Positions 2,068 through 37,264 of a DNA stretch of 64,000 nucleotides are shown one piece after another; position 1 is the stretch's first letter; each line of letters starts with the position of its first letter. Source of the stretch: Holophagales bacterium (GTDB lineage: Bacteria > Acidobacteriota > Thermoanaerobaculia > UBA5066); NCBI GenBank assembly GCA_016714815.1, contig JADKBZ010000003.1:544038-608037 (forward strand), given 5' to 3'. Made by a program: the position numbers and the translations under genes. Under the pieces are notes generated by a model. The model was not told the origin of the DNA and did not search any database. It saw only the letters and a program-made list of their open reading frames with translations.

Positions 2068-2829
2068 ATGCTCCAGCTCGCCACACCCCCCGAACGCAAC
2101 CGGCCCGCCCTGCTGACCTCGGTCGGAATCCACGCTCTGGCGGCGTCCGCCTTCTCGTTCGTTCCGCTGCTGGCCTTCCCGATCGCGCCCTTCTGGCCCG
2201 GAGAGGTCTGGGTCATCACGCAACCCGACCTCTCGGCCCTGCGCGACGTGAAGCCCGTCGACCTGCGGGGCCCCGCGCCCCAGGCACGGCCTCCGCGAGG
2301 CCCCGCGGCGGGCGGCGTTCCGGCCCCGCCGCGGGAAAGGCCGCCGGCCGAGCCCTCCGAGCCGATCGTGCAGCCGACGTCCATGCTCGCCGCGGTCGCC
2401 CCTGCTCCCGAAGCCGAGCCTCCCGGCGATTCCGGCATCCCCGGCAGCATCGGGAACGACATCGGGAGAAGGGCCGGTACCGGACCCGGCGACCCGAACG
2501 GCGATCCGAACGGCGATCCGAACGGCACGTACGACGGCCGCGGCGGAGCGCTCCCGGCCGACCTCGTCCTTCCCGTTCCGCTCGAGACGCCGGCGCCCCG
2601 CTATCCCGACATCGCCCGCCTCGTGCGGAAGGAAGGGGCCGTCGTCCTCTCGGCGACGATCGCCGCCGACGGAAACGTCGTCGACATCCAGCTCGAGAAG
2701 GGGATGGGCCCGCTCCTGGACCAGGCGGCCATCGACGCCGTCTCGCGCTGGCGCTACGTCCCCGCCCGCATCGGAGAACGGCGGGTGGCCGTGATCCTGC
2801 GGGTGACCGTCAACTTCCGGCTCCTCTGA
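2068..2829 (+). CDS. TonB family protein (energy transducer, C-terminal TonB domain)
   Basis: N-terminal TM anchor, Pro-rich spacer with PNGD repeats, C-terminal TonB-like domain (YPDIARLVRKEGAVVLSATIAADGNVVDIQLEKGMGPLLDQAAIDAVSRWRYVP). RBS ggagga upstream. Confidence 0.85.
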   Translation: MLQLATPPERNRPALLTSVGIHALAASAFSFVPLLAFPIAPFWPGEVWVITQPDLSALRDVKPVDLRGPAPQARPPRGPAAGGVPAPPRERPPAEPSEPIVQPTSMLAAVAPAPEAEPPGDSGIPGSIGNDIGRRAGTGPGDPNGDPNGDPNGTYDGRGGALPADLVLPVPLETPAPRYPDIARLVRKEGAVVLSATIAADGNVVDIQLEKGMGPLLDQAAIDAVSRWRYVPARIGERRVAVILRVTVNFRLL

Positions 2830-2890
2830 TCGTCCGGCAGCGTCCGGAGCGCCGGGAGACTCCCGGAGCGCCGGACCACGGCACGCCGTG

Positions 2891-2941
2891 CCAGGCGTGA
2901 ATTCGTGTATTGTTTTCAACAATACACGAATTCACGCCTGG
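2891..2941. repeat. 51-bp perfect palindrome (24-bp arms, 3-nt loop) in the convergent TonB / ABC permease intergenic region; probably a bidirectional terminator or protein-binding site
   Basis: ccaggcgtgaattcgtgtattgtt-ttc-aacaatacacgaattcacgcctgg. AT-rich relative to its context. A second small palindrome ggcacg-c-cgtgcc lies at 2880-2892. Confidence 0.7.
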
Positions 2942-2955
2942 CACCGTTTCCCGTC

Positions 2956-4257
2956 CTACCCGTCGGTCCAGCGGAACCGGAGCCGGGCGACGAGGAGGAA
3001 GAGGGCGGCGTAGCCGAAGAGGACCGCCGCGGCAGGAAGCGCACCCGCCACCAGGCCGGCGCCTCGCCACGTGACCGCGTCGAGGCCGTCGATCGCCCAG
3101 CGCGTCGGCAGGACCAGGGTCGCCGTCCGGAGCCACTCGGGGAAGACGAAGGCCGGGACCCAGCCTCCGCCGAGCATGACGAGGAGGAGGATCGCGAGGA
3201 TCGAGAGGCCGCGCGTGGCTCCGGGGGTCTTTCCCAGCGCCGCCAGGAGGAGACCGAACGACGAGGCCATCAGCGCGGAGGAGACGAGGATCAGGAGGAA
3301 CCCCGGAATGCTCCCCTGGATCCGGACTCCGAGAACGACGATGCCGAACGCGAACGTCGCTCCCACCGAGATGAGGCCGACGAGCGCGCCCGCGGTGGCC
3401 TTGCCGGCGAGCAGGGACGAACGGGAGAGCGGGGCGGCGCGAAGCCGCTTCCAGATCCCGCCCTGCCTCTCCAGGAGAAAGGCGATACCGAAGTCGAGCG
3501 CGACGAAGAGGAGGAACTGGATCCCCATCCCGGCGAAGGAGTGGGCGTAGCTGTTGTACGTCACCCCCCTGCGGGCCGTGACCGGCTCCTCCTTCAGAGT
3601 GAAGGGGGCCGCCGAGCCCGGCCCCCGCGTTTGCGTCGCCGCACCGCCCTGACCGCCAGTCGTCGATTCCTTCCAGCGGGTCACGTCCCTGAGGAGCTGC
3701 TCGAGCGTCTCGCGCTCCGGCGTCGCCGGCGCGGGGTCGGCTTCCAGGTTCCGGAGGCTCTCTTGGAGGACCGTCGTTCCCGAGCTTCCGCCGAACGCCT
3801 CCCGGGACGACTCGCGAAAGACCTTCTCGGAGAGGAGCCCTCTCACGAGGCCTGCCTCCGTTGCGCGAGACGGGTCGACGAGGAGGACGATCTCGGGGGC
3901 CTTCGAGGCTCCGAAGAAGGCGCGGACGCTCCCCTCGCCGAAACCCACCGGGAGAACGACCGCGGCGACGGCTTTGCCCTTCCTCACGGCCTCCCGTGCT
4001 GCGGCTTCGGTCGCCTGCGTCACGGCGAGGAGCGGATCGGCCGCGAGGCCCGCCACGACCGCACTCGAGACGGCGCTGCCGTCGGCGTCGGCGACGAGGA
4101 CCGGGATCTTCGCGGCTTCGTGCCGCCCCTGGCCCGAGAAGAGGAACCCGAAGAAGGTCGCCAGGAGAATCGGAGTGACGATCCCGACGACGACGGAGCG
4201 CGGGTCCGAGAGGAAGAGCTTCAGCTCGTGGCGGACGATCGCGAGCGCCTGTTTCAT
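2956..4257 (-). CDS. ABC-2 type transporter permease
   Basis: N-terminal TM, large extracytoplasmic loop, then 5 C-terminal TM helices typical of ABC-2/YhgE-like permeases. 4-nt overlap with the upstream ATPase gene. Confidence 0.8.
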   Translation of the reverse strand: MKQALAIVRHELKLFLSDPRSVVVGIVTPILLATFFGFLFSGQGRHEAAKIPVLVADADGSAVSSAVVAGLAADPLLAVTQATEAAAREAVRKGKAVAAVVLPVGFGEGSVRAFFGASKAPEIVLLVDPSRATEAGLVRGLLSEKVFRESSREAFGGSSGTTVLQESLRNLEADPAPATPERETLEQLLRDVTRWKESTTGGQGGAATQTRGPGSAAPFTLKEEPVTARRGVTYNSYAHSFAGMGIQFLLFVALDFGIAFLLERQGGIWKRLRAAPLSRSSLLAGKATAGALVGLISVGATFAFGIVVLGVRIQGSIPGFLLILVSSALMASSFGLLLAALGKTPGATRGLSILAILLLVMLGGGWVPAFVFPEWLRTATLVLPTRWAIDGLDAVTWRGAGLVAGALPAAAVLFGYAALFLLVARLRFRWTDG

Positions 4258-5251: not shown

Positions 5252-5629
5252 ACGAACCGCCGCCCGGGTCCCCTCACCGGAGTCGAGCTCGAGATCATGC
5301 ACGTCGTCTGGGAGCTCGGCACGGCGACGGTGAGGCAGGTCCACGACGTCCTCTCGGCCCGCCGTCCCGTCGCCTACACGACGGTCATGACGATGCTCGG
5401 CCTCCTCGCGAAGAAGGGCCACCTGAAACGGGAGGAGTCGGGAAAGGCCTTCGTCTACAGGCCGGCCCACGCCAAGGGGCGCGTCGTGTCGAAGATGCTC
5501 GACGACTTCGTCACGCGCGTCTTCCACGGCTCGGCCCGCCCGCTCGTCCTGGCCCTCCTGAGAGACAAGAAGATCTCGAAGCGCGACCTCGACGAGATCG
5601 CACGGCTCGCGGAGGAGGAAGAGAAATGA
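5249..5629 (+). CDS. BlaI/MecI/CopY family transcriptional repressor
   Basis: Winged-helix penicillinase-repressor family pattern (LTGVELEIMHVVWELGTATVRQVHDVL...AYTTVMTMLGLLAKKGHL). 4-nt overlap with the downstream M56 gene. Confidence 0.85.
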   Translation: MTNRRPGPLTGVELEIMHVVWELGTATVRQVHDVLSARRPVAYTTVMTMLGLLAKKGHLKREESGKAFVYRPAHAKGRVVSKMLDDFVTRVFHGSARPLVLALLRDKKISKRDLDEIARLAEEEEK

Positions 5630-6918
5630 CACCCCTCCTCGCCGACCTCGCCTCCTGGTGGCTCCAGGCGGGCCTTCTCCTCGGCGCGGGCCTCCTCCTG
5701 CCGGGCCTCGTCCGGCTCCACGACCCGGGCACGCGACTTCGGCTCGGGCAGCTTCTCCTCGCCGCCACGCTCCTCCTTCCGCTCGTTCAGCCGGGCCCGG
5801 CGCCCAGCTCCGCCGGAACCGACGGGTCCGGCCCCGGCTTCTCGCTCGCCATCCTCGTCACCGGCGAGCGCACCGCGGCGTCGGCTTCCTTCGAGACCGC
5901 GATCCTCGCCCTGCTCGCGGGCGGTGCGTTCCTCCGGTTCGGGTGGCTCGGGATCGGGCTCGTTCGCCTCCGCTCACTCCGGCGCCGCTCCCTTCCGATC
6001 GAGCCCCTCCCCCCGTCCATCGCGTCCGCGATCGCGCGGACCGCCACGACCGCGGAGATCCTCGTCTCCGGCGAGATCGCTTCTCCGGTCACGCTCGGCT
6101 GGCTCCGGCCCGCAGTGCTGTTCCCGGAGTGCTTTGCCGGCCTGGACGCCGCCGAGCAGGAAGCCGTCGCGTGCCACGAGCTCCTTCACGTGAGGCGGCG
6201 GGACTCGTGGGCGGTCCTCCTCGAGGAGGGGGCCCGCGCCCTCCTCTGGGCGCAGCCCGCCGCGTGGGGAGTCCTCTCCGACATCTCGCTCGCGCGCGAG
6301 CAGGCCGTCGACGGCGCCGCCGTCGCTTCGACGGGCGACCGGCGGGCCTATCTCCGCGCTCTCGCGGGCCTGGCCCGGCTGAGCCAGGAGTCCCCCGCGG
6401 CCGCGCTCCCCTTCCACACGCGGAGCCACCTCGTCCGAAGGGTGGCCCGCCTCGCAAAGGAGGTCCCCATGTCACGAACCCGCACGTCTCTCGCAGCCGC
6501 CGCCGCGGCCGCGCTGCTTCTCCTCGTCGGGACCGCCGGCGCGGCGGCCTTCCCGTTCGGGGGCGACCCGCAGAAGCCCTCGAGCCCTCCCGGGGCCGAG
6601 AAGGCAGCTGCCGCCGGCGGCGAAGGCCAGGTCCTGAAGGTCGGCGGCGACGTCAAGGAGCCCGTCGTCCTCCACCGGGTCCAGCCCGCCTACCCCGAGG
6701 AGGCACGGAAGAACAAGGTTCAGGGCGTCGTGAAGCTCGCCGCCGTCATCGACGAGAAGGGCGTCGTCGTGAAGGTCGAGCCGATCGAATCGCCCGACCC
6801 GTCGCTGAGCGAGGCTGCGGCCGCGGCGGTGAAGCAGTGGACCTACAAGCCGGCGACGAAGAAGGGGAAGCCGGTGAAGGTCGGGATGACCATCACCGTC
6901 AACTTCCGGCTCGCCTAG
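5626..6918 (+). CDS. M56 (BlaR1-like) peptidase signal transducer fused to a C-terminal TonB domain
   Basis: HExxH motif HELLHVRRRD in a BlaR1-like N-terminal membrane domain. C-terminal ~90 aa matches TonB_C (VVLHRVQPAYPEEARKNKVQGVVKLAAVIDEKGVV...TITVNFRL). Translationally coupled to blaI. Confidence 0.85.
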   Translation: MTPLLADLASWWLQAGLLLGAGLLLPGLVRLHDPGTRLRLGQLLLAATLLLPLVQPGPAPSSAGTDGSGPGFSLAILVTGERTAASASFETAILALLAGGAFLRFGWLGIGLVRLRSLRRRSLPIEPLPPSIASAIARTATTAEILVSGEIASPVTLGWLRPAVLFPECFAGLDAAEQEAVACHELLHVRRRDSWAVLLEEGARALLWAQPAAWGVLSDISLAREQAVDGAAVASTGDRRAYLRALAGLARLSQESPAAALPFHTRSHLVRRVARLAKEVPMSRTRTSLAAAAAAALLLLVGTAGAAAFPFGGDPQKPSSPPGAEKAAAAGGEGQVLKVGGDVKEPVVLHRVQPAYPEEARKNKVQGVVKLAAVIDEKGVVVKVEPIESPDPSLSEAAAAAVKQWTYKPATKKGKPVKVGMTITVNFRLA

Positions 6919-6985: not shown

Positions 6986-7012
6986 GAGCCCCCTCGCGCA
7001 AACTCCGTTCCC

Positions 7013-7079
7013 TTGACACCCCGGGGATCCGGAAATACAGTACTGACGTAGTCCTAATTGAACCGCTGTCTCGATTAGG
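7013..7079 (+). promoter_or_regulatory. Sigma70-like promoter (TTGACA-17-TACAGT) plus 6-15-6 inverted repeat (CCTAAT...ATTAGG), a candidate Rrf2 operator for the suf operon
   Basis: ttgaca at 7013-7018, tacagt at 7036-7041, inverted repeat at 7053-7058 / 7074-7079. Lies immediately upstream of the Rrf2 regulator and suf genes. Confidence 0.45.
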
Positions 7080-7104
7080 GCGGGGGCAGGAAGACGAAAC
7101 AGCC

Positions 7105-7571
7105 ATGATCCGGATGAACAAGCTGACCGACTACGGGGTCGTCCTTCTGACGACGTTCGCCCGCGAACCGGCGCACGGAATCAGCGCCCGCGAGCTCTCG
7201 GCCCGGACGGGAATCCCCCAGCCGACGGTCGTCAAGCTCCTGAAGACCCTGCTGAAGGCCGGCCTCCTCGTCTCGCAGCGCGGAACCAAGGGGGGATACG
7301 CGCTGGCGAAGCTCCCCGCAGAGGTCCCGGTGTCGGCGGTCATCGAGGCGCTCGAGGGGCCGCTCGCCATCACCGAATGCAGCGTGCCGGGAATGTGCGA
7401 GCACGAGCGCCGCTGCGTGGCCCGACCGAACTGGGCCGCAGTGAACGACGTCATCCACGAGGCGCTCTCGAAGCTGACGCTCGCGGAGATGACCCGGCCC
7501 GCCCAGGCGCATCCACCCCGTCCCGCCCCGCTTCTCCCCTCGATCGACTCTCCTCCCAGGAGCATCGCGCC

Positions 7572-7575
<4 letters not shown>
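7105..7575 (+). CDS. Rrf2 family transcriptional regulator (IscR/SufR-like, Cys-containing)
   Basis: N-terminal Rrf2 HTH ([63 protein letters not shown]) and a Cys cluster ([13 protein letters not shown]). First gene of the suf operon. Confidence 0.85.
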
Positions 7576-9017
<1,442 letters not shown>

Positions 9018-9019
9018 AC

Positions 9020-9804
<785 letters not shown>

Positions 9805-9808
<4 letters not shown>

Positions 9809-11106
9809 GCGCGACGGCGAGCCCGCTCTTCGTCCAGAACCTCCGCCACGAGGGCCTCGAGGCGCTCGGCAGGCTCGGGCTCCCCCGCCCCTCCGACGAG
9901 GAGTGGCGCTACACGAGCGTCGCAACGCTGGAAAAGCGTCTGCCGGAATTCGTCCCGGCCGTCGCGAGGTCCGGCGCCAGGCCGGCCGCTTCCGAGGAGG
10001 CGCGCGCCGCGGTCGCCTCCCTCGGGCCGATCGGCGTCGCCGGGCGCAGGCTCCACCAGCTCGTCTTCGTGAACGGCCGGCTGGACTCGGGGCTCTCGCG
10101 GTTCGACGGCCTGCCGTCGGGCGTCCGCTTCGAGGCCCTCTCCCGGCTCTTCGGCGAGCCGCCCGGGCTCCTCGCGAAGCGACTCGGCCTCCTCGGCGGT
10201 CACCGGAGCCACCCGTTCGTCGCGATGAATGCGGCACATCTCCTCGACGGCGTCTTCCTCCATGTTCCCGACGGGGTCGTCCTCGCCGAGCCACTCCTCG
10301 TCGTCCACGTGGCGGACGGCTCGGCCGGACCCGTCGCCTCGCATCCGCGCGTCGTCCTTTCGCTCGGCGAGAACGCGCAGGCGACAGTCGTCGAGGCGTA
10401 CTGCGGCACCGGCGAGGCGTTCGTGAACCCGGTGACGGAGATCGTCCTCGGCGCGCACGCCCACCTCGACCACTCGACGCTCCAGGAGGAATCGCCCGAG
10501 GCGTTCCACGTCGGGACGACCGAGGCGCACCTCGGCCCCGGCGCGCAGCTCTTCAGCCACGTCCTCTCGGTCGGAGGCCGGATCGCGAGGAACGAGCTGA
10601 CGGTCCGGCTCCACGGCGACGGCGCGGGGGCGACCCTCGACGGCCTCTTCCTGGCCCGCGGCGAGCAGCAGGTCGACAACCACACGCTCGTCGACCACGC
10701 CCGCCCGCACTGCGGGAGCCAGCAGTACTACAAGGGCATTCTCGACGGGAGCGCACGCGGCGCCTTCGACGGCAAGGTCATCGTCCGCCCCGCGGGCGCC
10801 TTCACCGACGCCCACCAGAAGAACCGCAACCTCCTCCTCTCCGACACGGCCCGCATCGACGCCAAGCCGCAGCTGGAGATCTACAACAACGACGTCAAGT
10901 GCACGCACGGCTCGGCGACGGGCCGGCTCGACGCGGACGCCCTCTTCTACCTCCGCTCGCGCGCCCTCTCCGAGGGCCAGGCCCGCAGCGTCCTGACCCT
11001 CGCCTTCGCGAGCGAGATCGTCGACCGCATCCCCGTCGAGCCGCTCAGGGCCCACCTGACCGAGCGCGTCCTCGGCTGGCTCGCCGGCAGCCCGGAGGCC
11101 TCATGA
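9805..11106 (+). CDS. sufD: Fe-S cluster assembly protein SufD
   Basis: SufD-type pattern with C-terminal beta-helix region (...QKNRNLLLSDTARIDAKPQLEIYNNDVKCTHGSATGRLD...). Overlaps the sufC stop and the sufS start. Confidence 0.85.
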
Positions 11107-12350
11107 GCACGACCGTCACGTCGGCCGCCGGCCTCGACGTCGCCGCCGTACGCCGCGACTTCCCGCTCCTGTCCCGCACGGCCCACGGCCACCCCCTCGT
11201 CTACCTCGACAGCGCGAACACGACGCAGAAGCCCGAGGCCGTGATCCGCGCCTCCGACCGCTTCTACCGCGAGCAGAACGCGAACATCCACCGCTCCACC
11301 TACCGCCTCTCCGAGGAGGCGACGGCGGCCTACGAAGGCGCCCGCGAAACCGTGCGCCGGTTCGTGAACGCCCGCTCGACGCGCGAGATCGTCTTCACGC
11401 GCGGAACGACCGAGTCGATCAACCTCCTCGCAACGAGCTTCGGCCAGGCGTTCGTGAAGGCGGGCGACGAGATCCTCATCACCGGGATGGAGCACCACTC
11501 CAACATCGTTCCGTGGCAGCTCCTCTGCGAGCGGACCGGCGCCAGGCTCCGCGTCATCCCGATCGACGACCGGGGCGACCTCGTCATGGACGACCTCGGC
11601 CGCCTCCTGACGGAGAAGACGAAGCTCGTCGGCGTCGTCCACGTCTCCAACGCCCTCGGCACCATCAACCCGGTGAAGGCCCTCATCGGCTACGCCCACG
11701 CCAAGGGCGTCCCGGTCCTCGTCGACGGGGCGCAGTCGATCCCGCACCTCGGCGTCGACGTCCAGGCGCTCGACTGCGACTTCCTCGCCTTCTCGGGGCA
11801 CAAGGTCTACGGCCCGACCGGAATCGGCGTCCTCTACGGCAAGGAGTCGTGGCTCTCGAAGATGCCCCCGTACCAGGGGGGCGGCGACATGATCGCCTCC
11901 GTCTCGTTCGAGAAGACGACGTACGCCGAGCTCCCGGCGAAGTTCGAGGCGGGGACGGGTAACCTTGCAGGCGCCGTCGCACTCGGCGCGGCCCTCGACT
12001 ACGTGACGGGCCTCGGCCTGCCGCGGATCGCCGCGCACGAGGCGGACCTCCTCTTCTACGCCACCGCGCGCCTCTCCGAGATCCCGGGCCTCAGAATCAT
12101 CGGCCGAGCCCGCGAGAAGGCGAGCGTCGTGTCGTTCGTCCTCGGAGATATTCACCCGCACGACGTCGGGACGATCCTCGATCAGGAAGGGATCTGCATC
12201 CGGACGGGCCACCACTGCGCGCAGCCGGTCATGACCCGCTACGACCTCCCCGCCACGGCCCGCGCCTCCTTCGGCCTCTACAACACGCGCGAGGAGGTCG
12301 ACGCGCTCGCGGCCGGCCTCCGGAAGGTCCTCGAGGTTTTCGGCGCATGA
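11103..12350 (+). CDS. sufS: Cysteine desulfurase SufS (PLP-dependent)
   Basis: PLP lysine motif FSGHKVYGPTGIGVLYGK, active-site Cys motif RTGHHCAQP. ATG at 11103 is in frame within the longer tracked ORF. Confidence 0.9.
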   Translation: MSTTVTSAAGLDVAAVRRDFPLLSRTAHGHPLVYLDSANTTQKPEAVIRASDRFYREQNANIHRSTYRLSEEATAAYEGARETVRRFVNARSTREIVFTRGTTESINLLATSFGQAFVKAGDEILITGMEHHSNIVPWQLLCERTGARLRVIPIDDRGDLVMDDLGRLLTEKTKLVGVVHVSNALGTINPVKALIGYAHAKGVPVLVDGAQSIPHLGVDVQALDCDFLAFSGHKVYGPTGIGVLYGKESWLSKMPPYQGGGDMIASVSFEKTTYAELPAKFEAGTGNLAGAVALGAALDYVTGLGLPRIAAHEADLLFYATARLSEIPGLRIIGRAREKASVVSFVLGDIHPHDVGTILDQEGICIRTGHHCAQPVMTRYDLPATARASFGLYNTREEVDALAAGLRKVLEVFGA

Positions 12351-12799
12351 CGGCTCTCACGGACCTCTACCAGGAGGTCATCCTCGACCACAACAAGTCG
12401 CCCCGGAACTTCCGGGCGCTCGAAGGGGCGACCCACTCCGGCATCGGCCACAACCCCCTCTGCGGCGACCAGCTGACGCTCTACGTCGTCGTCGACGGCG
12501 GCGTCATCCGCGAGATCGGCTTCCAGGGGAAGGGGTGCGCCATTTCGAAGGCGTCAGCCTCGCTCATGACCGAAGCCGTCAAGGGAAAGACCACGGAAGA
12601 GGCCGAGGCGCTCTTCACCCGCTTCCACGACCTCCTCACCGGACCGTCCGACGTGAAGACCGACGCGAAGGGCTTCGGCAAGCTCGCCGTCTTCTCCGGA
12701 GTCCGCGAATTCCCCGTCCGCGTCAAGTGCGCGACGCTCGCCTGGCACACGCTCCACTCGGCCCTCGCCGGGGGCGGCGCCTCGGCCTCCACGGAGTAA
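12347..12799 (+). CDS. sufU: SufU/NifU-like sulfur acceptor (SUF-type scaffold)
   Basis: Conserved Cys motifs (NPLCGD, GKGCAIS, VKCATLAWHTL) typical of Zn-binding SufU. Confidence 0.85.
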   Translation: MTALTDLYQEVILDHNKSPRNFRALEGATHSGIGHNPLCGDQLTLYVVVDGGVIREIGFQGKGCAISKASASLMTEAVKGKTTEEAEALFTRFHDLLTGPSDVKTDAKGFGKLAVFSGVREFPVRVKCATLAWHTLHSALAGGGASASTE

Positions 12800-12803
12800 C
12801 GCC

Positions 12804-13145
12804 ATGTCCGCCGCGATGCCCGAACCGACGCCCGCCGCTCCCTCCGACGACCTCGAGCAGAAGGTCGTCGGGGCGCTCAAGAAGATCTACGACCCCGAGA
12901 TCCCGGTCAACATCCACGACCTCGGCCTCATCTATTCGGTCAACGTCGCCGATGGCGGCGCGGTGCAGGTGACGATGACGCTCACCGCCCCCGCCTGCCC
13001 CGTCGCCGGGACCCTCCCCGGCGAGGTGGAACGGGCGGTACGGTCGGTCGACGGCGTCTCCGAGGCGAAGGTCGAGCTCGTCTGGGACCCGCCCTGGAAC
13101 CCCGGGATGATGTCCAAGATGGCCCGGGTGATGCTGGGGATGTGA
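12804..13145 (+). CDS. sufT: DUF59/MIP18-family Fe-S assembly protein (SufT-like)
   Basis: Pattern YDPEIPVNIHDLGLIY...TMTLTAPACPVAG, typical of the DUF59 domain found at the end of suf operons. Confidence 0.8.
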   Translation: MSAAMPEPTPAAPSDDLEQKVVGALKKIYDPEIPVNIHDLGLIYSVNVADGGAVQVTMTLTAPACPVAGTLPGEVERAVRSVDGVSEAKVELVWDPPWNPGMMSKMARVMLGM

Positions 13146-13396
13146 CCGTGGCCCTCGCCGACGGCCTCCGCGAGTACCTGGCGCGCGACTGGGCGGCGGT
13201 GAGGGAGTCGAAAGAGGCCGCGCTCGCCGAGCGGCTCGACCGGCTCGGCCCCGCCGAGAGCCTGCGGATGGCCGACGAGCTTCGCCACTTCGCGCGTTCC
13301 GTCGGCTCCGACCCCGCCGCGGCCGACCTCAGGGCCGCCGACCTCGAGGCCCACCGGCGCCTCAGCTCGCTTCTGCGCCGTGCCTCTCACGTCTGA
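13142..13396 (+). CDS. Hypothetical small helical protein (84 aa), possible partner of the downstream nucleotidyltransferase
   Basis: 4-nt overlap with the sufT stop and overlaps the downstream nucleotidyltransferase gene start. No recognisable motif. Confidence 0.45.
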   Translation: MTVALADGLREYLARDWAAVRESKEAALAERLDRLGPAESLRMADELRHFARSVGSDPAAADLRAADLEAHRRLSSLLRRASHV

Positions 13397-13997
13397 CGCC
13401 GCCCGGCTCCTCGCGCTCGTCCGCGAGGTCTTCCGGCTGCGAGGCGATCGCTGGTTCCTCTTCGGCGCCCAGGCCGTCGTCGCCCACGGTTTTCCCCGGA
13501 CGACCGGCGACGTCGACGTGACGGTCGTCCCCGCAGACGGAAACCCGCGCGCCCTCGCGACCGCCCTCGTCTCCGCCGGGCTGACCCTGCGGGTCTCCGA
13601 TCTCGACGACTTCGTCGATCGGACCGCCGTCCTCCCCTTCCTGCACGAAGCGACCGGCCTCGGCCTCGACGTCGTCCTCGGCGCCTCCGGCCTCGAGAAC
13701 GACTGCATCGACCGCGCGGTTGCCGTCGACATCGGGGACGGCACCGTTCCGGTGATCCGTGTCGAGGACCTGGTCGTCCTCAAGGTCCTCTCCGGCCGCC
13801 CGAAGGACGTCGAGGACGTGAGGTCGATCCTGCGCCGGCGGCGTCTCACGCTCGATCTCGCCCACGTCCGCTCGCTCCTCGCCGAACTGGAAGAGGCCCT
13901 CGGGCAGAGCGACCTCGTGCCCGAGCTCGAAGGGCTGCTCGCCGAGGAAGAGCGGTCGCGAGGCGTTCGCGGCCGGACGACTCCCCGCCGGACGTAG
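13380..13997 (+). CDS. Nucleotidyltransferase-fold protein (minimal NTase, DUF6036-like)
   Basis: NTase signature GAQAVVAHGFPRTTGDVDVTVV (G[SA]x9-13DhD). About 205 aa. Confidence 0.55.
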   Translation: MPLTSDAARLLALVREVFRLRGDRWFLFGAQAVVAHGFPRTTGDVDVTVVPADGNPRALATALVSAGLTLRVSDLDDFVDRTAVLPFLHEATGLGLDVVLGASGLENDCIDRAVAVDIGDGTVPVIRVEDLVVLKVLSGRPKDVEDVRSILRRRRLTLDLAHVRSLLAELEEALGQSDLVPELEGLLAEEERSRGVRGRTTPRRT

Positions 13998-14136
13998 CGG
14001 TCCTTCAGCAACGGACGGGAGACGGCCTCGCCAGCATCGGAGCCATGGTGATGGTTTCGCAAGGAAGAAGGGCCGAAGAAGCCGGGCCCCGCAAGGGGTC
14101 GGGAACGAATCCGGCGAACCTGGTGAGGAGTCCCCA

Positions 14137-14236
14137 AAGCGCCTCGTCCACGACCTCCTGACCGGACCACGCGACGTGAAGATCGACGCCGACGGCGGCG
14201 CGGTCCAGGATGGCCCTGGTGATGATGGGGATGTAG
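14137..14236 (+). pseudogene. Degenerate fragments homologous to the sufU 3' region and the sufT 3' end (non-coding remnants)
   Basis: 14137-14190 resembles sufU 12611-12665 (...cgtccacgacctcctgaccggaccacgcgacgtgaagatcgacgcc). 14189-14236 resembles sufT 12939-12966 and 13119-13145 (atggccctggtgatgatggggatgtag vs atggcccgggtgatgctggggatgtga). Confidence 0.55.
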
Positions 14237-14287
14237 ACCGGGCACCCGCCGACGTCCGCGTTTACGCTTTCGTCACAGCCACCGGAA

Positions 14288-15286
14288 TTGTCGACTGGAC
14301 TGCCAGTGGTCGTACGCGGAGCGGAGGCCCAACCAAGGACGAGATCCATCACCGAGCGGCCCGCCTGGCGGAGCTTCCGTTCCTCCCTTGGGTTCGCGGC
14401 CGCGCTCCTCGTATCCCCGTCCCCAACCGCGACCGCGCCCACGACCGCGGTGACGATCCACGAGTTCCCGATCCCGACGGCCGGTTCTTTGCCCTATGGG
14501 CTCACCTCGGGACCAGACGGCGCAATCTGGTTCACCGAGTGGGCGAGCAACAAGGTCGGCCGGATCACGACCGCCGGTGTCGTCACCGAGTTCACGATCC
14601 CGGCGACGAGCCACGGTCTCCACGTCATCGTCTCCGGGCCCGACGGCAACCTCTGGTTCACGGAACTCGACGGCAACAGGATCGGCCGGATGACTCCTGG
14701 AGGAGACCTCACGGAGTTCCCGCTCCCGGAGGCGGGCAGCGCGCCCTACGCCATCGCTGCGGGACCCGACGGCAACCTCTGGTTCACGGAGTACGTCGCC
14801 AACAGGATCGGCCAGCTCATCGTTCCGTGGACCGCGTACTTCACGATTCCTCCGTGTCGTCTCTTCGACACGCGAAACAGCGAGGGGCCGGACGCGGCGT
14901 CGCCGATCCTCGCGGCCGGGGAGTCCCGGCCCCTGGCGCTCGACGGGAGATGCGGCGTCCCCACGTCGGCACGCGCCGTGTCGATCAACGTGACGGTGAC
15001 GCAGCCCGGCGCGCCCGGGAACTTCGTTCTTTTCCGTGGGGACCTCGCCCCGGTCCCGAACACCAGCAACCTCAACTTCCCGGCCGGAAGCACCCGGGCG
15101 AACAACGGAATCCTGGGGTTGGACCTTCACGGGGGCCAGACGATCAAGGTCGTGAACTACTCGGCCGGCCCGGCTCATTTCATCCTCGACGTGTCCGGGC
15201 ATTTCGAGTCGTCACCCCGGAGATCCTGGATCTGGACCAAAGCCCGCCGACGGACCTGCAGAGGGTCCCTCGATACCTCCCGCTGA
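14288..15286 (+). CDS. Secreted beta-propeller protein with Vgb (streptogramin lyase)-like repeats plus a C-terminal PPCRxxDTR...LDVxGxF module
   Basis: Four repeats of the type GPDGNLWFTE..NRIGR (Vgb family style), then CRLFDTRN...NVTVTQPGAPGNFVLF...HFILDVSGHFE. The 5' end and the 25-aa C-terminal extension are uncertain; the gene sits between suf-like remnants. Confidence 0.65.
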   Translation: MSTGLPVVVRGAEAQPRTRSITERPAWRSFRSSLGFAAALLVSPSPTATAPTTAVTIHEFPIPTAGSLPYGLTSGPDGAIWFTEWASNKVGRITTAGVVTEFTIPATSHGLHVIVSGPDGNLWFTELDGNRIGRMTPGGDLTEFPLPEAGSAPYAIAAGPDGNLWFTEYVANRIGQLIVPWTAYFTIPPCRLFDTRNSEGPDAASPILAAGESRPLALDGRCGVPTSARAVSINVTVTQPGAPGNFVLFRGDLAPVPNTSNLNFPAGSTRANNGILGLDLHGGQTIKVVNYSAGPAHFILDVSGHFESSPRRSWIWTKARRRTCRGSLDTSR

Positions 15287-15287
15287 A

Positions 15288-15385
15288 CGGGTCGACGGAA
15301 ACGATCGGGGCGACCTGGTCCTCGACGACCTCGGCCGCCTCTGACCGAGCGGACGAAGCTCGTCGCCGTCGTCCGCGTTTCTGAA
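15288..15385 (+). pseudogene. Degenerate fragment homologous to an internal sufS segment (about 11568-11650)
   Basis: acgatcggggcgacctggtcctcgacgacctcggccgcctc-tgaccgagcggacgaagctcgtcgccgtcgtccgcgt versus the sufS sequence, about 80% identity in the same orientation. Confidence 0.5.
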
Positions 15386-15513
15386 GACCGTCACGCGGCC
15401 CGGGAGATCGACGCCGGCGGCCCTTCCACGAGACGGTCGAAGACGCCGTTCGATCCCGGCCGACTTCCGCCGCAACGGATCTTTCGCCCGAGCCCGATCC
15501 GGGGCCTCGCGCT

Positions 15514-16992
15514 TCAGCGCGCCACGCCGCTGAGGAGGAAGGGCGGCACCTGCACAACGGTCCCGGGATCCGGCAGACGGCGAGGATCCGCGAAGAACGC
15601 TCTCATGATCCGGGCCGCCTCCGGGTGCGTGAAAAGGGGCGCGTGGGACATGCCGGGTAGGGTCATCAGGTGAGCATTGGGCAGGTGAGCCAGGGTGGCA
15701 CGGGCCCACTTCCCCGGCGTGTCGGGATCGAATTCACCGGAAACGATCAGAATCGGGACCGCGCTGGAGACAGGTTCGTTTTCCCTGGCGTCCGGGTGTC
15801 CCTGAGGCCACGCGTCGAGCGCTTCCATCGGCACTGCGGTCTGGACGAACCCCCGGAGCTCCTTCGGTAGTCCGGTCGGGTGGAGGATGCGGGAAGGCCT
15901 TTCGAACGGCAGTTCCTCGTTGCACCACACCGCGAGCCGCATCCCCCAGGCCGCACCCTGGGAGGAGCCGAGGTCCGCCTCGAGCATCGGGGCCAGGAGC
16001 TGAAAGTCGCCCCTGGTCGCCGCGTCCATGGCCAGGAGCGTCGGCCGAATGGTGCCGGCCTGCTCGAGCCCCGCGTAGACGGAGTTCATGAGGCCCGCAG
16101 CGCCGAGCCGGACGACGAGGGGAGAGCCGTCCCGTGGATTCCGGACCCGGACCTGCACTGGCTTCCGGTTCGCCGTCGCCAGCACTTTCAGGAATCGGAC
16201 CTCGAGGTCCTTGCACGCGACCCGGAGGGATTCGTCCCTCTGACCCGCGGCGAGTACACGCCTCAGGACCTCCAGGATGTTGGCCGGAGCCTCTTCGTCC
16301 CAGTTGGATTCCGGCGTGAGCACCGAGTCCAGGATCGCGGATCGGATGCCTTCCGGGTGATCGCGCAGAACGGTCAGCATCAGCTTCGTGCTGTAGGAGA
16401 CGCCGTAGAGATTCAGCGCGGGGATTCCCAGCAGGCGCCTCAGGTCCGCGATGTCCGCGGCGCTCTGCTCCGTCGTGTAGCCCGCGAGGTCCACGCCCTC
16501 GGCCTTGAACGCCGCCGCCGCCGAAGCGAGGGCCTTGCGGACCGTGGCGGAGACGGGCCTGCCGTCGAGCTGCGTCGCCCAGCCCGAGCGCAGGGCTTCG
16601 TCGATGCCGGGCGCCACGAGCGAGGGCTCCGCGTGATGGGTCCCGCGCTGCTCGAAGAGGATCAGGTCCCGATCGTCGAGCAGAGGCTGATTCGCACGGC
16701 GTCTCGCGCCCGAGAGCGAGCTTCCCCCGGGTCCCCCGGCGGTGAAGAGGATCGGATCCTCCGGAGCCGCAGGATTGCGGCTCTTCTCGATGATGAACGG
16801 AAGGCGGATGCTCCGGGAGCCCTTCGCGTGCCGATTCTCGGGGACGACGAGGTAGCCAGTGCGCAGATCCGGCGCCTTCTCCACGACGGCGGCCGGCAGG
16901 TCGGCCCACTCGACGCGTGGCACGGGCAGCGCCGGCTGGGCGCCAGCGGGGAGTGACGCGGCCAGGAGCAGGAGCATGTTTCGGATCGCCAT
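15514..16992 (-). CDS. Secreted alpha/beta hydrolase (S33 prolyl/tripeptidyl aminopeptidase-like)
   Basis: Signal peptide, nucleophile elbow GVSYS, C-terminal Asp/His region (SGEFDPD...MSHAPL). Confidence 0.75.
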   Translation of the reverse strand: MAIRNMLLLLAASLPAGAQPALPVPRVEWADLPAAVVEKAPDLRTGYLVVPENRHAKGSRSIRLPFIIEKSRNPAAPEDPILFTAGGPGGSSLSGARRRANQPLLDDRDLILFEQRGTHHAEPSLVAPGIDEALRSGWATQLDGRPVSATVRKALASAAAAFKAEGVDLAGYTTEQSAADIADLRRLLGIPALNLYGVSYSTKLMLTVLRDHPEGIRSAILDSVLTPESNWDEEAPANILEVLRRVLAAGQRDESLRVACKDLEVRFLKVLATANRKPVQVRVRNPRDGSPLVVRLGAAGLMNSVYAGLEQAGTIRPTLLAMDAATRGDFQLLAPMLEADLGSSQGAAWGMRLAVWCNEELPFERPSRILHPTGLPKELRGFVQTAVPMEALDAWPQGHPDARENEPVSSAVPILIVSGEFDPDTPGKWARATLAHLPNAHLMTLPGMSHAPLFTHPEAARIMRAFFADPRRLPDPGTVVQVPPFLLSGVAR

Positions 16993-17157
16993 GTGCGCTT
17001 CTCGAAGGGCCGCTCCTATCCTAGACCACGCCAGGCCGGCCCAGCCTCACCGCGCCACCCCGGGTGCGCCCGCCCGGGCAAACGAGACTCACCTCCGGCT
17101 TTCCACGAAGGGAAAGACGCGATAGGGTGCCCCTTCCGTTTAGCGGAGGAGGAAAGC

Positions 17158-20064
17158 ATGAGAGGTCGGATGTGGGTCGCTGGTGCCGTTCTCGCGGCCA
17201 TCGTGAGAGTAGCGAGCGCCGAGAGCACCGGAGCCAACTGGCCGTCCCTGCCCGAGCAGCTGGGCAAGGACAAGGTCCTGGCGGGGAGCGCTCTCGAGGC
17301 GCTGATCAAGGCCAACCAGGATTTCGGAATGCTCCGAGCCGAGGAAGCCAAGGACACGATAAGAGTTCCGCCGTGGCTCCGGGTCGTCTGGAGGAAGTCC
17401 CACCCCGAGGGGGTCTACGTTGCCGACGACCCGACGGGCGGGTACCCCTTCGTCCTGAAGGAGGTCCACGAGTGGATGCTCTCGCACCAGGACCTCCAGC
17501 CGGGGGTTCCGGAAGCCCACGTCCCTCCGGGGCCGAAGGCGGGCGTCGGTACGAACGTGCGCACCTCGGGGCTGCAGACGGTCCCGCGGAGCGAGTCCGA
17601 CATCCGGATCAACTACTGGAACCCGCAGCTCGTCATCGCCTCGTCGAACAACATCGGCGGGAGCGGCCTGCAGGGCCAGTACTACTCGGCCGACGGTGGG
17701 GCGACCTGGGGCCAGACGACGCTCGGCTCGTTGTTCACCGGTGACGCCTTCCACTCCGATCCGACCGCCGACTGGACGTCCGACGGCAAGGCCTGGTCGT
17801 CCACCCTCGGGATCGACAGCGGCGGGAGCGTCCTCAAGGGCCGGATGTACACCTCGGCCGACAACGGCGCGACCTGGGCGCAGGAGGGCACCTGGACCGG
17901 GACCCAGACGAGCGTCGACAAGCAGATGGCCTGGGTCGACCACAGCGCGACCTCCCCATACAAGGACAGGGTCTACGTCATCTACCACAACAACGCGCCG
18001 GCCTTTATGAATCGCAGGACCCCCGGCGTCGCCGGGACCTGGCTCGCGGCACCGATCCAGGTGAGCGGAGCCGAGAGCACCGGGACCTGCATCGGCGGTG
18101 ACGTGAAGTCGAACGCCTACGGGGACGTCTTCGGCTTCTGGCCCACCACGACGAACCGGAGGGTCCTCGTCGTCAAGTCGGTGAACGGCGGGGACAGCTT
18201 CGGGACCCCGGTCCAGGTCGCCACCACCTACGACGGGTACGACATCGGGGTTCCCTCCTTCAACGGCCGGCGAGCCCTGATCTACGTCTCGGCCGGGGCC
18301 TACCGGACCGCCGCGAAGGACATGGTCTACGCCTCCTGGACCGACCTCTCGGGAGAGGCGGGCTGCACGGCCGCCGCCAACGAGCCCGGCTCGAACGTGG
18401 CCTCCACGTGCAAGACGCGGGTCTGGTTCAGCCGCTCGACGAACGGCGGCGCGACCTGGTCCGCCCCGGCGATGATCAACAATCAGGCCTCGCTGAACGA
18501 CCAGTTCAACCAGTGGCTCGCGGTGGACGAGACGTCCGGCGCGATCGCGCTCATGTACTACGACACCGTCGCCGACGCGGGGCGCAAGAAGTCCGACGTC
18601 TGGTACCAGTCGTCGTTCAACGACGGCGCGAGCTGGAACGCGCCCGTCAAGGTGACGACCGCGCAGACCGACGAGACGACCGGGGGACAGGACAGCGGCA
18701 ACCAGTACGGCGACTACAACGGGCTCTCGTACTACGCCGGCGTCGCCTTGCCCGTCTGGACGGACAGGAGGTCCGGGCTCAAGGAAGAGATCTGGACCGC
18801 GAAGGTGACCGACGCGGCCTGCACCGCCCCGGCCGCTCCGACCGCTGGCACCGCGACGGCGACGGGCGCGAACCAGATACAGGTGACCTTCACGAACGGA
18901 GCCCCCCCCTCGTCGACCTACAAGGTCTACCGGGCTCCGGGCACGTGCGCCGCGCCCACGGGGCCCTTCGTCGCGATCGCGTCGAACGTGGCCGCCTCTC
19001 CCTACCTTGACACGACGGTCTCGGGCGGCTCCACCTACGCCTACAAGGTCAGCGGGTTCGAGGTCACGGGAATCTGCGAGTCGACGCAGTCGACCTGCCT
19101 CGAGGCGACGGCGACGGGCGCCTGCACCCTCGCCCCGACGTTCGCCGGGGCCGCGACCGTGACGAACGCCGCGACCGCCTCGTGCCAGCTGGACGTGGCC
19201 TGGTCGGCCGCCACGGCCGGCTGCGCCGGGCCCGTCACCTACAACGTCTACCGCTCTACGACCAGCGGCTTCACGCCGGGTCCGGCCAACCTCGTGGCGT
19301 CGGGTCTCACCGGCACCGTCTGGAACGACGCGACGCCGCTCACCTCCGGCACCCGCTACTACTACATCGTCCGGGCGGTCGACTCGTCGAACTCCGTCGA
19401 GGAGACGAACTCCGCCGAGAAGAGCGGCTTCCCGACGGGTCCGATCGCCGTGGGGACCTTCACCGACACCTTCGAAGGGGCTCTCTCCGGCGGCGGATTC
19501 GACCGGACCGGCTGGACCCACCAGTTCATCGGCGGATCGGTCGACTGGGCCTGGTCCACCGCGGTGACCGCGAACACCCCCACCCACTCCTGGTTCTCCT
19601 CCAGCCAGACCAGCGTCTCGGACCGGATCCTCGTCTCGCCGTCCTTCATCCCGGCGGCCGACTCCGTCCTCACCTTCTTCCACACCTTCAACTTCGAGGG
19701 GACCAGCACCTGCTTCGACGGCGGGACGCTCGAGGTCTCCACGAACGCAGGGGCGACCTGGACGGTCGTCCCCGATGCCGCGTTCACCGCGGGGGGCTTC
19801 ACCGGGACCGTCAGCAGCAGCTTCAGCAACCCGATCGGAGGCAAGCGGGCCTGGTGCTTCGGGACGGTCGGGGCCATGACCCAGGTGACCGTCAACCTGG
19901 CGGCCTACGCCGGCCTCGGCACACAGCTGCGCTGGCACGAGGGCGACGACTCCTCGACCAAGGCCACGGGCTGGTACGTCGACTCCGTCGTGATCACGAA
20001 CGCGGGCTCGGCGTCGGCCTGCAACACGTCGCCCGTCGAGCTGCTGACGTTCAGCGTGGACTGA
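17158..20064 (+). CDS. Large secreted BNR/Asp-box repeat protein with Fn3-like domains, a MAM-like domain and a C-terminal PVELLTFSVD tag
   Basis: Signal peptide; BNR motifs (YSADGGATW, SADNGATW, STNGGATW, FNDGASW); two Fn3-like segments (YKVYRAPGT.., YNVYRSTTSG..); LRWHEGDDS..GWYVDSV; ends PVELLTFSVD. ATG at 17158 preceded by ggaggaggaaagc. Confidence 0.8.
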   Translation: MRGRMWVAGAVLAAIVRVASAESTGANWPSLPEQLGKDKVLAGSALEALIKANQDFGMLRAEEAKDTIRVPPWLRVVWRKSHPEGVYVADDPTGGYPFVLKEVHEWMLSHQDLQPGVPEAHVPPGPKAGVGTNVRTSGLQTVPRSESDIRINYWNPQLVIASSNNIGGSGLQGQYYSADGGATWGQTTLGSLFTGDAFHSDPTADWTSDGKAWSSTLGIDSGGSVLKGRMYTSADNGATWAQEGTWTGTQTSVDKQMAWVDHSATSPYKDRVYVIYHNNAPAFMNRRTPGVAGTWLAAPIQVSGAESTGTCIGGDVKSNAYGDVFGFWPTTTNRRVLVVKSVNGGDSFGTPVQVATTYDGYDIGVPSFNGRRALIYVSAGAYRTAAKDMVYASWTDLSGEAGCTAAANEPGSNVASTCKTRVWFSRSTNGGATWSAPAMINNQASLNDQFNQWLAVDETSGAIALMYYDTVADAGRKKSDVWYQSSFNDGASWNAPVKVTTAQTDETTGGQDSGNQYGDYNGLSYYAGVALPVWTDRRSGLKEEIWTAKVTDAACTAPAAPTAGTATATGANQIQVTFTNGAPPSSTYKVYRAPGTCAAPTGPFVAIASNVAASPYLDTTVSGGSTYAYKVSGFEVTGICESTQSTCLEATATGACTLAPTFAGAATVTNAATASCQLDVAWSAATAGCAGPVTYNVYRSTTSGFTPGPANLVASGLTGTVWNDATPLTSGTRYYYIVRAVDSSNSVEETNSAEKSGFPTGPIAVGTFTDTFEGALSGGGFDRTGWTHQFIGGSVDWAWSTAVTANTPTHSWFSSSQTSVSDRILVSPSFIPAADSVLTFFHTFNFEGTSTCFDGGTLEVSTNAGATWTVVPDAAFTAGGFTGTVSSSFSNPIGGKRAWCFGTVGAMTQVTVNLAAYAGLGTQLRWHEGDDSSTKATGWYVDSVVITNAGSASACNTSPVELLTFSVD

Positions 20065-37200: not shown

Positions 37201-37264
37201 CGAGAACGACGCCGTCGGCGGAACGGTCCACTTCATCCTGGACGTCAACGGATACTTCGAGTAG
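34247..37264 (+). CDS. Secreted M14 zinc carboxypeptidase with Fn3/Ig-like and MAM-like domains and a C-terminal PPCRxxDTR...LDVNGYFE module
   Basis: Signal peptide; M14 motifs (IHGDEKGG, NPYG, NRNF, HEGE); two Fn3-like domains (YKVYRSTTSP..); LLRWNF..GWYVDDIKV; C-terminus PPCRVIDTRGA...CGIPATA...TRANNGILGL...HFILDVNGYFE. Confidence 0.8.
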   Translation: MRGLTSLLLAVVLGISLRAAADTYDTHTLVAVTTRGDADVRALRDAGADVVGRKGNVYKALLTPGQLEKLTAQGLQIEVLRAEMDADRKRWAENDAASRANLATAYYTASKFDLVSPPAGSLMEHLLQQYNAHPGITRLYNLGATQDGAYDVIAMKVSKNPDAVEAEPKIRIYGNIHGDEKGGCMVASDVLDTILAGYAAVPQDATAKKLVDESEIWFIPMGNPYGNAHNQRGNVNGVDLNRNFWGPSGSDAPPAWSQKETQIIRDLTETATADHGKKRFTTSISFHEGEVCLNSIWNYTSAAPSDEPLFWATRSGGNVTLAADGLAKAYQDGVTTPGFWYTNGYDWYQTRGDTNDWSYGAWSALDTTIELNSIKAPPAAQIPTYCAQHRQAVLNYMLKTFQGVHGVMTDQSSGAPLDGTVSATCTASSTVAVPHAYQAIYTDPVAGDFHRVLLPGTYTITCKAPGYVDTVIPGVVVTADSKTSCNCPMTTPCTNNPTAVNVAPAGPLVLCPGTGQTLTANVTGGTGPFTYQWYDGASAIPGAEDPTYFANDAGAHSYSCKVTGSGCTGGITDPTPSQVTWQAAPAFAGATSVTTPGSALCTLTVGWSAASSACPGTVTYKVYRSTTSPVSVGPASLAASGLTGTSYDDTSALANGARYYYVVRAVSGAGVEDANTVERSAIPAGPLVTGDWIAGAETGGPALTLNAPWGLSTTYKRTGTSSYSTGSGGTYADGACGGLTTPPLVLGAGSVLTFHHIYSTETGYDGGRVEISTNGGGSWAPLTPSPAYPGNIIHTTACGWSNPTPCYIGDSSGYPATWQLATINLAAWGGQTALLRWNFTTDTSQDGSLANPGWYVDDIKVTGVQVPGPCSGAATALSFHELPPCRVIDTRGATGPLGGPVLAAGISVRTFPVTGTCGIPATAKALSVNQTVTEPAATGFLRVYPGDLTGAQVPITSAVSFSAGKTRANNGILGLAGNGNGTIAVENDAVGGTVHFILDVNGYFE

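Follow-up and report, generated by a model that had tools for sequence, protein, structure and literature searches.

Scraps of sufU, sufT and sufS around a decaying Vgb-like gene behind the suf operon of a Holophagales bacterium

Introduction

How do short pieces of sufU, sufT and sufS come to lie on both sides of a gene resembling a streptogramin lyase, a short way downstream of an intact suf operon? The question is raised by a stretch of 64,000 nucleotides (nt) from a Holophagales bacterium (assembly GCA_016714815.1, contig JADKBZ010000003.1, forward-strand positions 544,038 to 608,037). We call this whole stretch the window and use its own coordinates. Behind sufT come a small open reading frame (ORF84), a minimal nucleotidyltransferase (NTase) and a frame related to the Vgb lyases. 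A reading of the window made from the letters alone (the sequence-only reading) had proposed that an old partial duplication of sufS-sufU-sufT was broken up and invaded by foreign genes. We followed up this proposal, and we take the suf-like scraps to be inert relics of illegitimate, microhomology-mediated recombination at a rearrangement-prone boundary between the suf/toxin-antitoxin block and a set of variable genes. The scraps and the dying gene between them would be a fresh example of a familiar kind, pseudogene scraps in a variable region.

Results

Suf-derived pieces and their controls

We searched 13146–15600 by blastn against the suf region and then against the whole window. Three main matches scored 54–90 bits, compared with 33 bits for the best unrelated match in the whole window, and a fourth, weaker piece lies among them. 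All four are on the same strand as the suf genes. The features concerned are as follows.

11103–12350, plus strand: resident sufS, 415 amino acids (aa), Pfam Aminotran_5; the source-like gene of the 15301–15381 piece.
12347–12799, plus strand: resident sufU, 150 aa; TIGR01994 SufU, E 1.7e-46.
12804–13145, plus strand: resident gene for a sufT-type iron-sulfur (Fe-S) assembly protein, 113 aa; TIGR02945 SUF_assoc, E 2.3e-43.
14142–14196, plus strand: sufU-derived scrap (u'), matching sufU 12619–12673.
14184–14209, plus strand: possible mid-sufT scrap, matching sufT 12944–12969.
14203–14257, plus strand: sufT-end scrap (t'), matching sufT 13112–13166.
14288–15286, plus strand: open frame with a Vgb-lyase-family remnant (Pfam Vgb_lyase); ancestral coding part 14336–15208.
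15301–15381, plus strand: sufS-derived scrap (s'), matching sufS 11566–11647.

The s' match is 86.6% identical over 82 nt, with one 1-nt deletion (blastn, E 4e-22). For u', blastn returned a core of 88% identity (14147–14189 against sufU 12624–12666), which softer scoring extended to the full 55 nt at 82% (E 1.5e-10 against the whole window). The t' piece is 80% identical over 55 nt without gaps (E 1.3e-9). It holds the final 11 codons of sufT, a TAG where sufT has TGA, as the sequence-only reading had seen, and about 21 nt past the stop that match the start of ORF84; the presence of these last nucleotides argues that a contiguous stretch was copied and not a coding motif. The mid-sufT piece matches the resident gene at 23/26 positions, which is noise level by itself; against the allele of the related locus L104 it matches at 25/26, and it is collinear with the other pieces.

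Against suf 11100–13170 the best local score was 68 for 13998–14300 and 107 for 15200–15520. Among 300 dinucleotide-preserving shuffles no score exceeded 33 and 43, respectively, and 338 real 300-nt pieces taken from the window reached 46 at most; comparison of the window with itself gave very few other internal repeats. The sufU-, sufT- and sufS-like copies reported near the Vgb-like gene are thus borne out, in decayed form and far above the background of GC-rich sequence. Their coding capacity is lost: the pieces are 26–82 nt long and lack start codons, s' carries the 1-nt deletion, and from the mid to the end sufT piece the reading frame shifts. Of 18 changes in the scraps about 6 are synonymous (judged by eye, over very few sites), with no clear bias to synonymous sites. 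The spacers 13979–14146 and 15382–15500 had no match in sensitive blastn (word 7) and tblastx searches against the window and all fetched loci, except for 33 nt corresponding to positions 8238–8270 of the sister contig L096.

The same arrangement across the scraps is present in same-species contigs from other samples and assemblers: L001 (GCA_016722225.1, a Holophagales metagenome-assembled genome), L002 (Logan SRR28161540, 99.93% identical over the 5.6 kb of 12368–17934), L003–L005 and L088. Since at least five independent contigs from different samples carry it, misassembly, a concern of the sequence-only reading, is excluded. On the short contigs L004 and L005, and not on the longer ones, a minus-strand frame is called at 14005–14442, antisense to the suf scraps and the 5' end of the Vgb-like gene; it is probably a GC-rich artefact.

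A truncated Vgb-like gene between the pieces

Pfam Vgb_lyase (E 5e-45) covers only aa 56–177 of the Vgb-like frame, corresponding to profile positions 86–207 of 290. Full-length homologues of the family measure about 440–470 aa; their signal peptide and seven blades are followed by a roughly 130-aa C-terminal domain that ends in GYFE. The L096 orthologue is intact at 459 aa, and its DNA is 92–96% identical to the window copy over the shared parts. Relative to this orthologue, the window copy no longer has its start (ATG to AGG at 14336–14338) and its stop (TAG to TCG at 15209–15211), and the latter change by itself makes the 25-aa C-terminal extension. Both this extension and the atypical N-terminus had been noticed earlier and taken as signs of disruption; they are real and the gene is indeed disrupted, but they stem from point changes, not from rearrangement. 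The larger lesion, a loss of four of the seven propeller blades, had gone unnoticed: residues 143–310 of the L096 protein are cleanly missing, 168 aa or four 42-aa blades, which leaves three blades and the C-terminal domain.

The ratio of nonsynonymous to synonymous substitution (dN/dS) against L096 is 0.62–0.65 for the Vgb-like gene and 0.20 for the neighbouring hydrolase. Strains of the window species carry further lesions of their own, frameshifts among them: L001 has a 2-nt deletion at 14394–14395 and lacks another 159 bp, L003 has a 1-nt deletion and L088 a 6-nt deletion. Translation of the window frame could still start at an upstream TTG or GTG, which leaves room for residual expression. 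Judged from these lesions, the gene is clearly a decaying remnant. In annotation, 13998–15513 is better treated as decaying sequence than as an intact secreted "streptogramin lyase" gene, and the suf-like matches in it should not be called as genes.

The blade repeats match the profile of the virginiamycin B (streptogramin B) lyase family (PF24684), and the full-length homologues share with that family a signal peptide and a seven-blade propeller. The window copy differs from the family in keeping only three blades, in its mutated start and stop codons and in the extra, unannotated C-terminal domain. Orthology to a resistance lyase was ruled out, as the NCBIfam scores for Vgb(A) and Vgb(B) are 115 and 109 bits, far under the cut-off of 600. 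A protein search with the intact L096 Vgb found no orthologue outside this species and L096, the best full-length matches being about 55% identical.

The C-terminal domain (PPCRxxDTR ... ILDVxGYFE, at the very C-terminus) is common to the Vgb-family protein (14819–15208) and a 1,108-aa M14-peptidase-like protein (36800–37261). It also occurs in many full-length Vgb-family homologues, has no Pfam match and may be an uncharacterised sorting or anchoring domain.

Breakpoints and joints relative to the sister contig L096

The comparison with L096 draws on four further features of the window.

13998–14141, no strand: spacer between the NTase stop and the first suf scrap, without a match in the window or the fetched loci.
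15383–15415, plus strand: piece matching L096 8238–8270, 78.8% over 33 nt with a 17-nt exact core.
15494–17068, minus strand: alpha/beta-hydrolase segment with a gene at 15514–16992 (492 aa); Pfam Abhydrolase_1 and Abhydrolase_4.
17071–20064, plus strand: region of a BNR-repeat protein gene, the right-hand anchor common with L096 (93% nt identity to L096 8267–9816).

The window reads sufS-sufU-sufT, ORF84, NTase, the 144-nt spacer, u', t', the Vgb remnant, s', the 33-nt piece, 78 nt, the hydrolase (minus strand) and the BNR gene. The order in L096 is sufS-sufU-sufT, ORF82, NTase, about 595 nt of unrelated sequence, the hydrolase (minus strand), Vgb (plus strand), a 189-aa frame and the BNR gene. 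The hydrolase segment thus stands to the right of Vgb in the window and to its left in L096 (4028–5604, 92% nt identity).

From 14217 rightward the t' piece is also in L096 (5605 onward; 5605–5644), directly upstream of the intact Vgb, where it abuts the hydrolase upstream region; the end of L096's own sufT matches that spot too. Being common to the window and L096, the link between t' and Vgb predates the split of the two species. The u' piece and the first 14 nt of t' were not found in L096.

On the 3' side of Vgb, homology between the window and L096 runs to 15308 (ACGATCGG), so that 15209–15308 corresponds to the sequence downstream of the L096 Vgb. Beyond this point the window passes into s', and L096 into 1,038 bp with the 189-aa frame. 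The sufS-like piece had been placed at 15288–15385 with about 80% identity; that match is real, at the higher identity given above, but its start belongs at 15301/15309. The 8 nt at this joint, which are also the first 8 nt of the scrap, match sufS as well (ACGACCGG; ACGAYCGG in common), and because they match both sides they represent microhomology. The joint is of the kind that a duplication makes, in direct orientation: Vgb downstream sequence (to 15308) is joined to the interior of sufS (from 15301/15309). Immediately after s', 15383–15415 matches L096 8238–8270 with a 17-mer core that occurs nowhere else in the window. L096 has this piece just before 8267, where homology to the upstream region of the window BNR gene (17071) starts. 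Relative to L096, therefore, s' replaces a 1-kb stretch, and the hydrolase segment (~15416–17068) is inserted between the 33-nt piece and the BNR gene.

The u', mid-sufT and t' pieces overlap by 6 and 7 nt (CGACGC and GTCCAGG), short repeats of the parent genes at the deletion edges. Overall, the joints carry 5–8 nt of microhomology and the scraps sit at the breakpoints between the two species' arrangements; the alignment with L096 reveals what appear to be several successive relocations and replacements, made at joints with microhomology.

The region 3' of the NTase differs in every related species examined, with a DUF2911 gene in L089, a 964-aa gene in L090, a glycosyltransferase in L098 and L099, a radical SAM gene in L093 and the hydrolase in L096. 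A scan of metagenome DNA with the t'–Vgb junction 22-mer gave no match, and a metagenome scan with the hydrolase gave relatives of 61–76% aa identity, none with shared neighbours.

The hydrolase segment of 1.6 kb interrupts sequence that is continuous in L096 (15383–15420 and 17060–17085; L096 8238–8290). A short GC-rich motif (GCCCGGG-like) stands at both of its edges, perhaps as microhomology or as a target duplication; there is no transposase.

A candidate toxin-antitoxin pair at the end of the suf operon

Two genes separate sufT from the variable region.

13142–13396, plus strand: ORF84, small protein, candidate MenA1-like antitoxin; the frame shares 4 nt with sufT and 17 nt with the NTase.
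13380–13997, plus strand: DUF6036/DUF2204 minimal nucleotidyltransferase, 205 aa, candidate MenT1/AbiEii-like toxin; Pfam DUF6036, E 1.7e-7.

The sequence-only reading had cast them as foreign invaders of a broken suf duplicate. The relatives contradict this. SufS homologues at 81–97% identity are plentiful and the loci of several were fetched (a SufS scan of a genome collection was useless for synteny, returning among the matches listed only distant relatives of at most 67% aa identity). The pair directly follows sufT, with the same ATGTGA stop/start overlap, in L089, L090, L096 and L098, of which the first three have SufS identities of 95%, 92% and 96% and hold the pair at 10043–10898, 10037–10883 and 2608–3445, respectively. 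Nor do the scraps flank the whole of 13142–15390, as had been supposed; they flank the Vgb remnant only. Extra suf-like pieces downstream were found in none of the fetched loci except L096, which has the sufT-end piece upstream of Vgb, and relatives without scraps carry the pair behind sufT; in part, this speaks against the mosaic as originally drawn.

Elsewhere the module is decayed or gone. L107 keeps ORF82 and the first ~37 codons of the NTase, L106 has an internal stop in ORF82, L104 and L099 retain a few nucleotides of the module and L093 has none. The alleles also differ greatly. ORF84 is 94% identical (aa) to its L089 counterpart and about 49–51% to those of L090, L096 and L098; the NTase is 97% identical to that of L089 and 54–59% to those of L096 and L090. 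The flanking suf genes are 90–97% identical in these relatives despite such divergent alleles (48–59% aa). NTase homology to all relatives stops at 13975–13978, the very end of the gene. This architecture and the sequence comparisons suggest that the module was already in place behind the suf operon before these species separated, and that individual lineages are probably exchanging or losing it.

In a phmmer search of PDB the NTase matched the crystal-structure entry of the M. tuberculosis toxin MenT1 (8AN4) with E 1e-6 over residues 14–152. The MenT1 positions T39, D41, K137 and D152, those mutated in MenT1 (PMC10435456), appear conserved (T-x-D-x-D, K, D) in an alignment read by eye, where the numbering may be off by about 1. 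The antitoxin of MenT1, MenA1, has 68 aa and its gene lies just upstream (PMC10435456). The start of the NTase gene lies within the end of ORF84, and the two genes occur together in L089, L090, L096 and L098 as well. The pair looks like a candidate toxin-antitoxin system of the MenA1/MenT1 type. As in the M. tuberculosis system, the NTase is toxin-sized (~200 aa), its putative partner is a short overlapping upstream gene without a DNA-binding domain (84 aa), and the presence of the module is patchy among relatives, with decay. Unlike that system, the window NTase falls by Pfam into DUF6036 and DUF2204 and has no Pfam match to DUF1814/AbiEii (PF08843), the L090 allele alone showing a weak AbiEii match; no similarity to MenA1 was detected in ORF84; and the pair, whose toxicity is putative, is translationally coupled to the end of a housekeeping operon. 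ORF84 had no match in Pfam, NCBIfam, PADLOC or PDB, PADLOC gave none for the NTase either, and our literature search found no mention of DUF6036. A MenT1-like candidate at the end of a suf operon, with very different alleles or wrecks in sister lineages, is a lead in its own right.

Age and allelic source of the pieces

About 18 of 197 aligned positions in the scraps (~9%) are private changes, the frameshift included, with 7 in u' and 5 in s'. At several further positions the scraps differ from the resident genes but agree with the majority of the relatives, which points to an old copy or to later change in the resident allele. One example is s', which encodes Leu and Arg, as do most relatives, where the resident SufS has Met and Lys. 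The best match is the L104 allele (75/82 for s' and 25/26 for the mid-sufT piece, with a TAG stop), compared with 71/82, 23/26 and TGA for the resident genes; these margins are only 2–4 nt. Three histories would account for this: copying that preceded the changes in the resident genes, later replacement of the resident operon through recombination, or an origin of the pieces in a relative. The second is plausible, since in a comparison of 7000–13978 with L089, L096 and L104 the identity to L089 ranged between 77% and 100% from one part of the operon to another (77–81% at 9750–10250, the start of sufD; 97–100% at 8000–9250, sufB to the start of sufC), a pattern that suggests a mosaic built by recombination between species. 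With a synonymous divergence (dS) of 0.10–0.20 between the window and L096, the ~9% private change points to an age comparable, in order of magnitude, to that of the species split, which agrees with t' being common to L096.

Discussion

A proposed former extra copy of the 3' part of the operon

We give about an even chance to the scraps being non-functional relics of a former extra partial suf copy that was later cut down by deletions. Such a copy would have comprised the 3' part of the operon: the interior of sufS, the 3' part of sufU, sufT and the first 20–30 nt beyond it. Illegitimate recombination would have produced it, most likely through local duplication, segmental or tandem, with the join at 15308/15309, at about the time of the split from the sister species or before it. 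Microhomology-mediated deletions would then have removed nearly all of the copy, and further local events would have shifted the hydrolase segment and replaced the 1-kb stretch. We propose that the scraps now bracket the decaying Vgb gene because of these deletions and later events. The duplication itself, the number and order of events and the lack of function are what we infer.

Several observations fit this reading. The junction of Vgb downstream sequence with the interior of sufS is the kind of new join that a tandem duplication makes. The collinear, same-strand sufU and sufT pieces with their 6–7 nt overlaps fit a contiguous copy from which 277 and 142 bp, or 438 bp, were lost. The sufT event predates the species split, since t' also lies upstream of the intact Vgb in L096.

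Other points weigh against it. The order u'-t'-Vgb-s'-hydrolase needs three copies, or a separate earlier event that placed u' and t' upstream of Vgb. A simple duplication does not predict the 33-nt piece between s' and the hydrolase, and pieces as short as 26–82 nt fit templated patching as well. No relative examined has a larger second suf copy. Finally, no outgroup with the Vgb gene was found that would show whether the window-like or the L096-like order is ancestral. The earlier idea of an old, broken-up sufS-sufU-sufT duplicate therefore stands as far as the decayed pieces go, but a simple duplicate cannot give u'-t'-Vgb-s' without further events.

We tried specific models. One tandem duplication from mid-sufS to Vgb yields the Vgb/sufS join but not the upstream u'-t'. 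A duplication from mid-sufS to the hydrolase, with Vgb inserted in the second copy, explains L096 and the swapped hydrolase but misplaces s', which would end up on the wrong side. The order is reproduced by a triplication, at the cost of five deletions. We prefer none of these models over the others.

The preferred history resembles bacterial gene remnants left by segmental duplication and deletional decay. As in those cases, the pieces are short, same-strand, collinear and derived from neighbouring genes; they show a frameshift, an altered stop, no clear synonymous bias and deletions at short direct repeats; and the site is a variable region beside a conserved operon. It differs from them in the scrambled order, with u' and t' before the flanked gene and s' after it, and in a duplication that is deduced and was not observed as a larger copy in any relative.

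Alternative explanations

The main alternative, a tentative one which we think somewhat unlikely, is that the pieces are templated filler DNA. Serial template switching at microhomology, of the microhomology-mediated break-induced replication (MMBIR) or fork stalling and template switching (FoSTeS) type, would have copied 26–82 nt of nearby suf sequence into the joints, and no longer copy would ever have existed. The same strand carries the templates nearby (1.5–3.7 kb from the joints), and microhomologies of 5–8 nt join the short, directly oriented pieces. Each scrap, moreover, lies exactly at a breakpoint defined by L096, with u' at the left one and s' in place of the 1,038 bp. Three ordered forward jumps along sufU-sufT, however, are more suggestive of a contiguous copy that suffered deletions. 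With t' common to L096 and u' and s' not, no fewer than two separate events would be required. The pieces are also nearer to the L104-like or ancestral allele than to the supposed resident template in the counts given above, although the resident allele may have been replaced since, given its mosaic identity to relatives (77–100%). Template-switching insertions of this type have been described mainly in eukaryotes. The tens-of-nucleotide patches from nearby sequence at microhomology joints are like them; unlike them, the window patches are 11–20% diverged from their present templates and one is older than the others, and a single complex event would have to be postulated.

Import is distinctly unlikely. 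Here the pieces would have arrived with the Vgb gene from a close relative that had Vgb beside suf and, like L104 and L106, a TAG-ending sufT and a defunct toxin-antitoxin module, by homology-facilitated illegitimate recombination that brought or trapped the flanking suf pieces. Such an origin suits the best match to the L104 allele and the TAG shared with L104, L106 and L093. The restriction of the Vgb gene to this species and L096, with the next homologues at ~55%, also favours it, as do toxin-antitoxin alleles 48–59% identical (aa) between the window and L096 and 94–97% between the window and L089, which show that DNA has been exchanged between lineages here. Yet a sufT-Vgb arrangement was found in no relative examined, the position of s' downstream of Vgb is left unexplained, and the allele preferences rest on 2–4 nt. 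In naturally transformable bacteria, homology-facilitated illegitimate recombination usually replaces recipient DNA and leaves no partial duplicate. The locus resembles such events in having foreign DNA beside a conserved anchor (the suf operon), microhomology joins and different toxin-antitoxin alleles at the same site in sister lineages, and departs from them in that no donor arrangement was found.

A function at the RNA level is very improbable. Read-through RNA from the hydrolase would be antisense to s', or the sense scraps would act as decoys, and either would link suf to its neighbours. Along the strand that codes for the hydrolase, s' follows its stop after 133 nt, no terminator-like site separating the two, it has perfect runs of 17 and 14 nt against the sufS mRNA, and the scraps are invariant in same-species assemblies (weak evidence, as these are at least 99% identical overall). 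Against this, u' and s' are absent from the sister L096, about 9% of positions carry private changes including an indel, and the scraps lie amid other clearly decaying sequence. No Rfam family and no promoter-like or terminator-like site was found, and the only inverted repeats are short and imperfect. That the captured 81-nt sufS-like piece, lying in the hydrolase read-through or 3' untranslated zone, has turned into a trans-acting antisense regulator of Fe-S cluster assembly we find scarcely credible.

An artefact, either accidental similarity between GC-rich sequences or a chimeric assembly of the metagenome, deserves practically no credence and was rejected: the genome is ~69% G+C and one of the four pieces (14184–14209) is at noise level against the resident gene, but the scores lie far above every shuffle and real-sequence control and the independent contigs agree.

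The locus offers two close species at different stages of local reshuffling beside a conserved operon, with joints that can be read to the nucleotide, microhomology included, and could help the study of bacterial rearrangement without mobile elements.

Locus layout and other features of the window

The suf operon is complete in the window on the plus strand, with an Rrf2-type regulator, sufB, sufC, sufD, sufS, sufU and the sufT-type gene. The resident SufS is 100% identical to P0121, 'cysteine desulfurase [Holophagales bacterium]'. By sequence reading, the TGA stop of sufT overlaps the GTG start of ORF84. Downstream follow ORF84, the NTase, a 290-nt gap, the Vgb-like open frame, a 227-nt gap, the hydrolase (minus strand) and the BNR-repeat gene.

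Insertion of a mobile element (insertion sequence, transposon, integron cassette or genomic island) was considered and rejected. Pfam found no transposase or integrase among the four open reading frames in 13142–17000, only NTase, hydrolase, Vgb_lyase and weak propeller-repeat matches, with ORF84 matchless. The region contains no notable inverted repeats and no tRNA was found in it, and its G+C content stays at 66–75% without a step.

The BNR-repeat gene (19132–19447) and the M14-peptidase-like gene (35996–36308) have about 315 nt in common at 67% identity, probably one common domain. Toward its right-hand end, at 58654–64000, the window carries at least three tandem paralogous genes of ~600 aa each (58654–60411, 60496–62382 and a third that runs past the window end), which are 78–84% identical in DNA and have no Pfam match.

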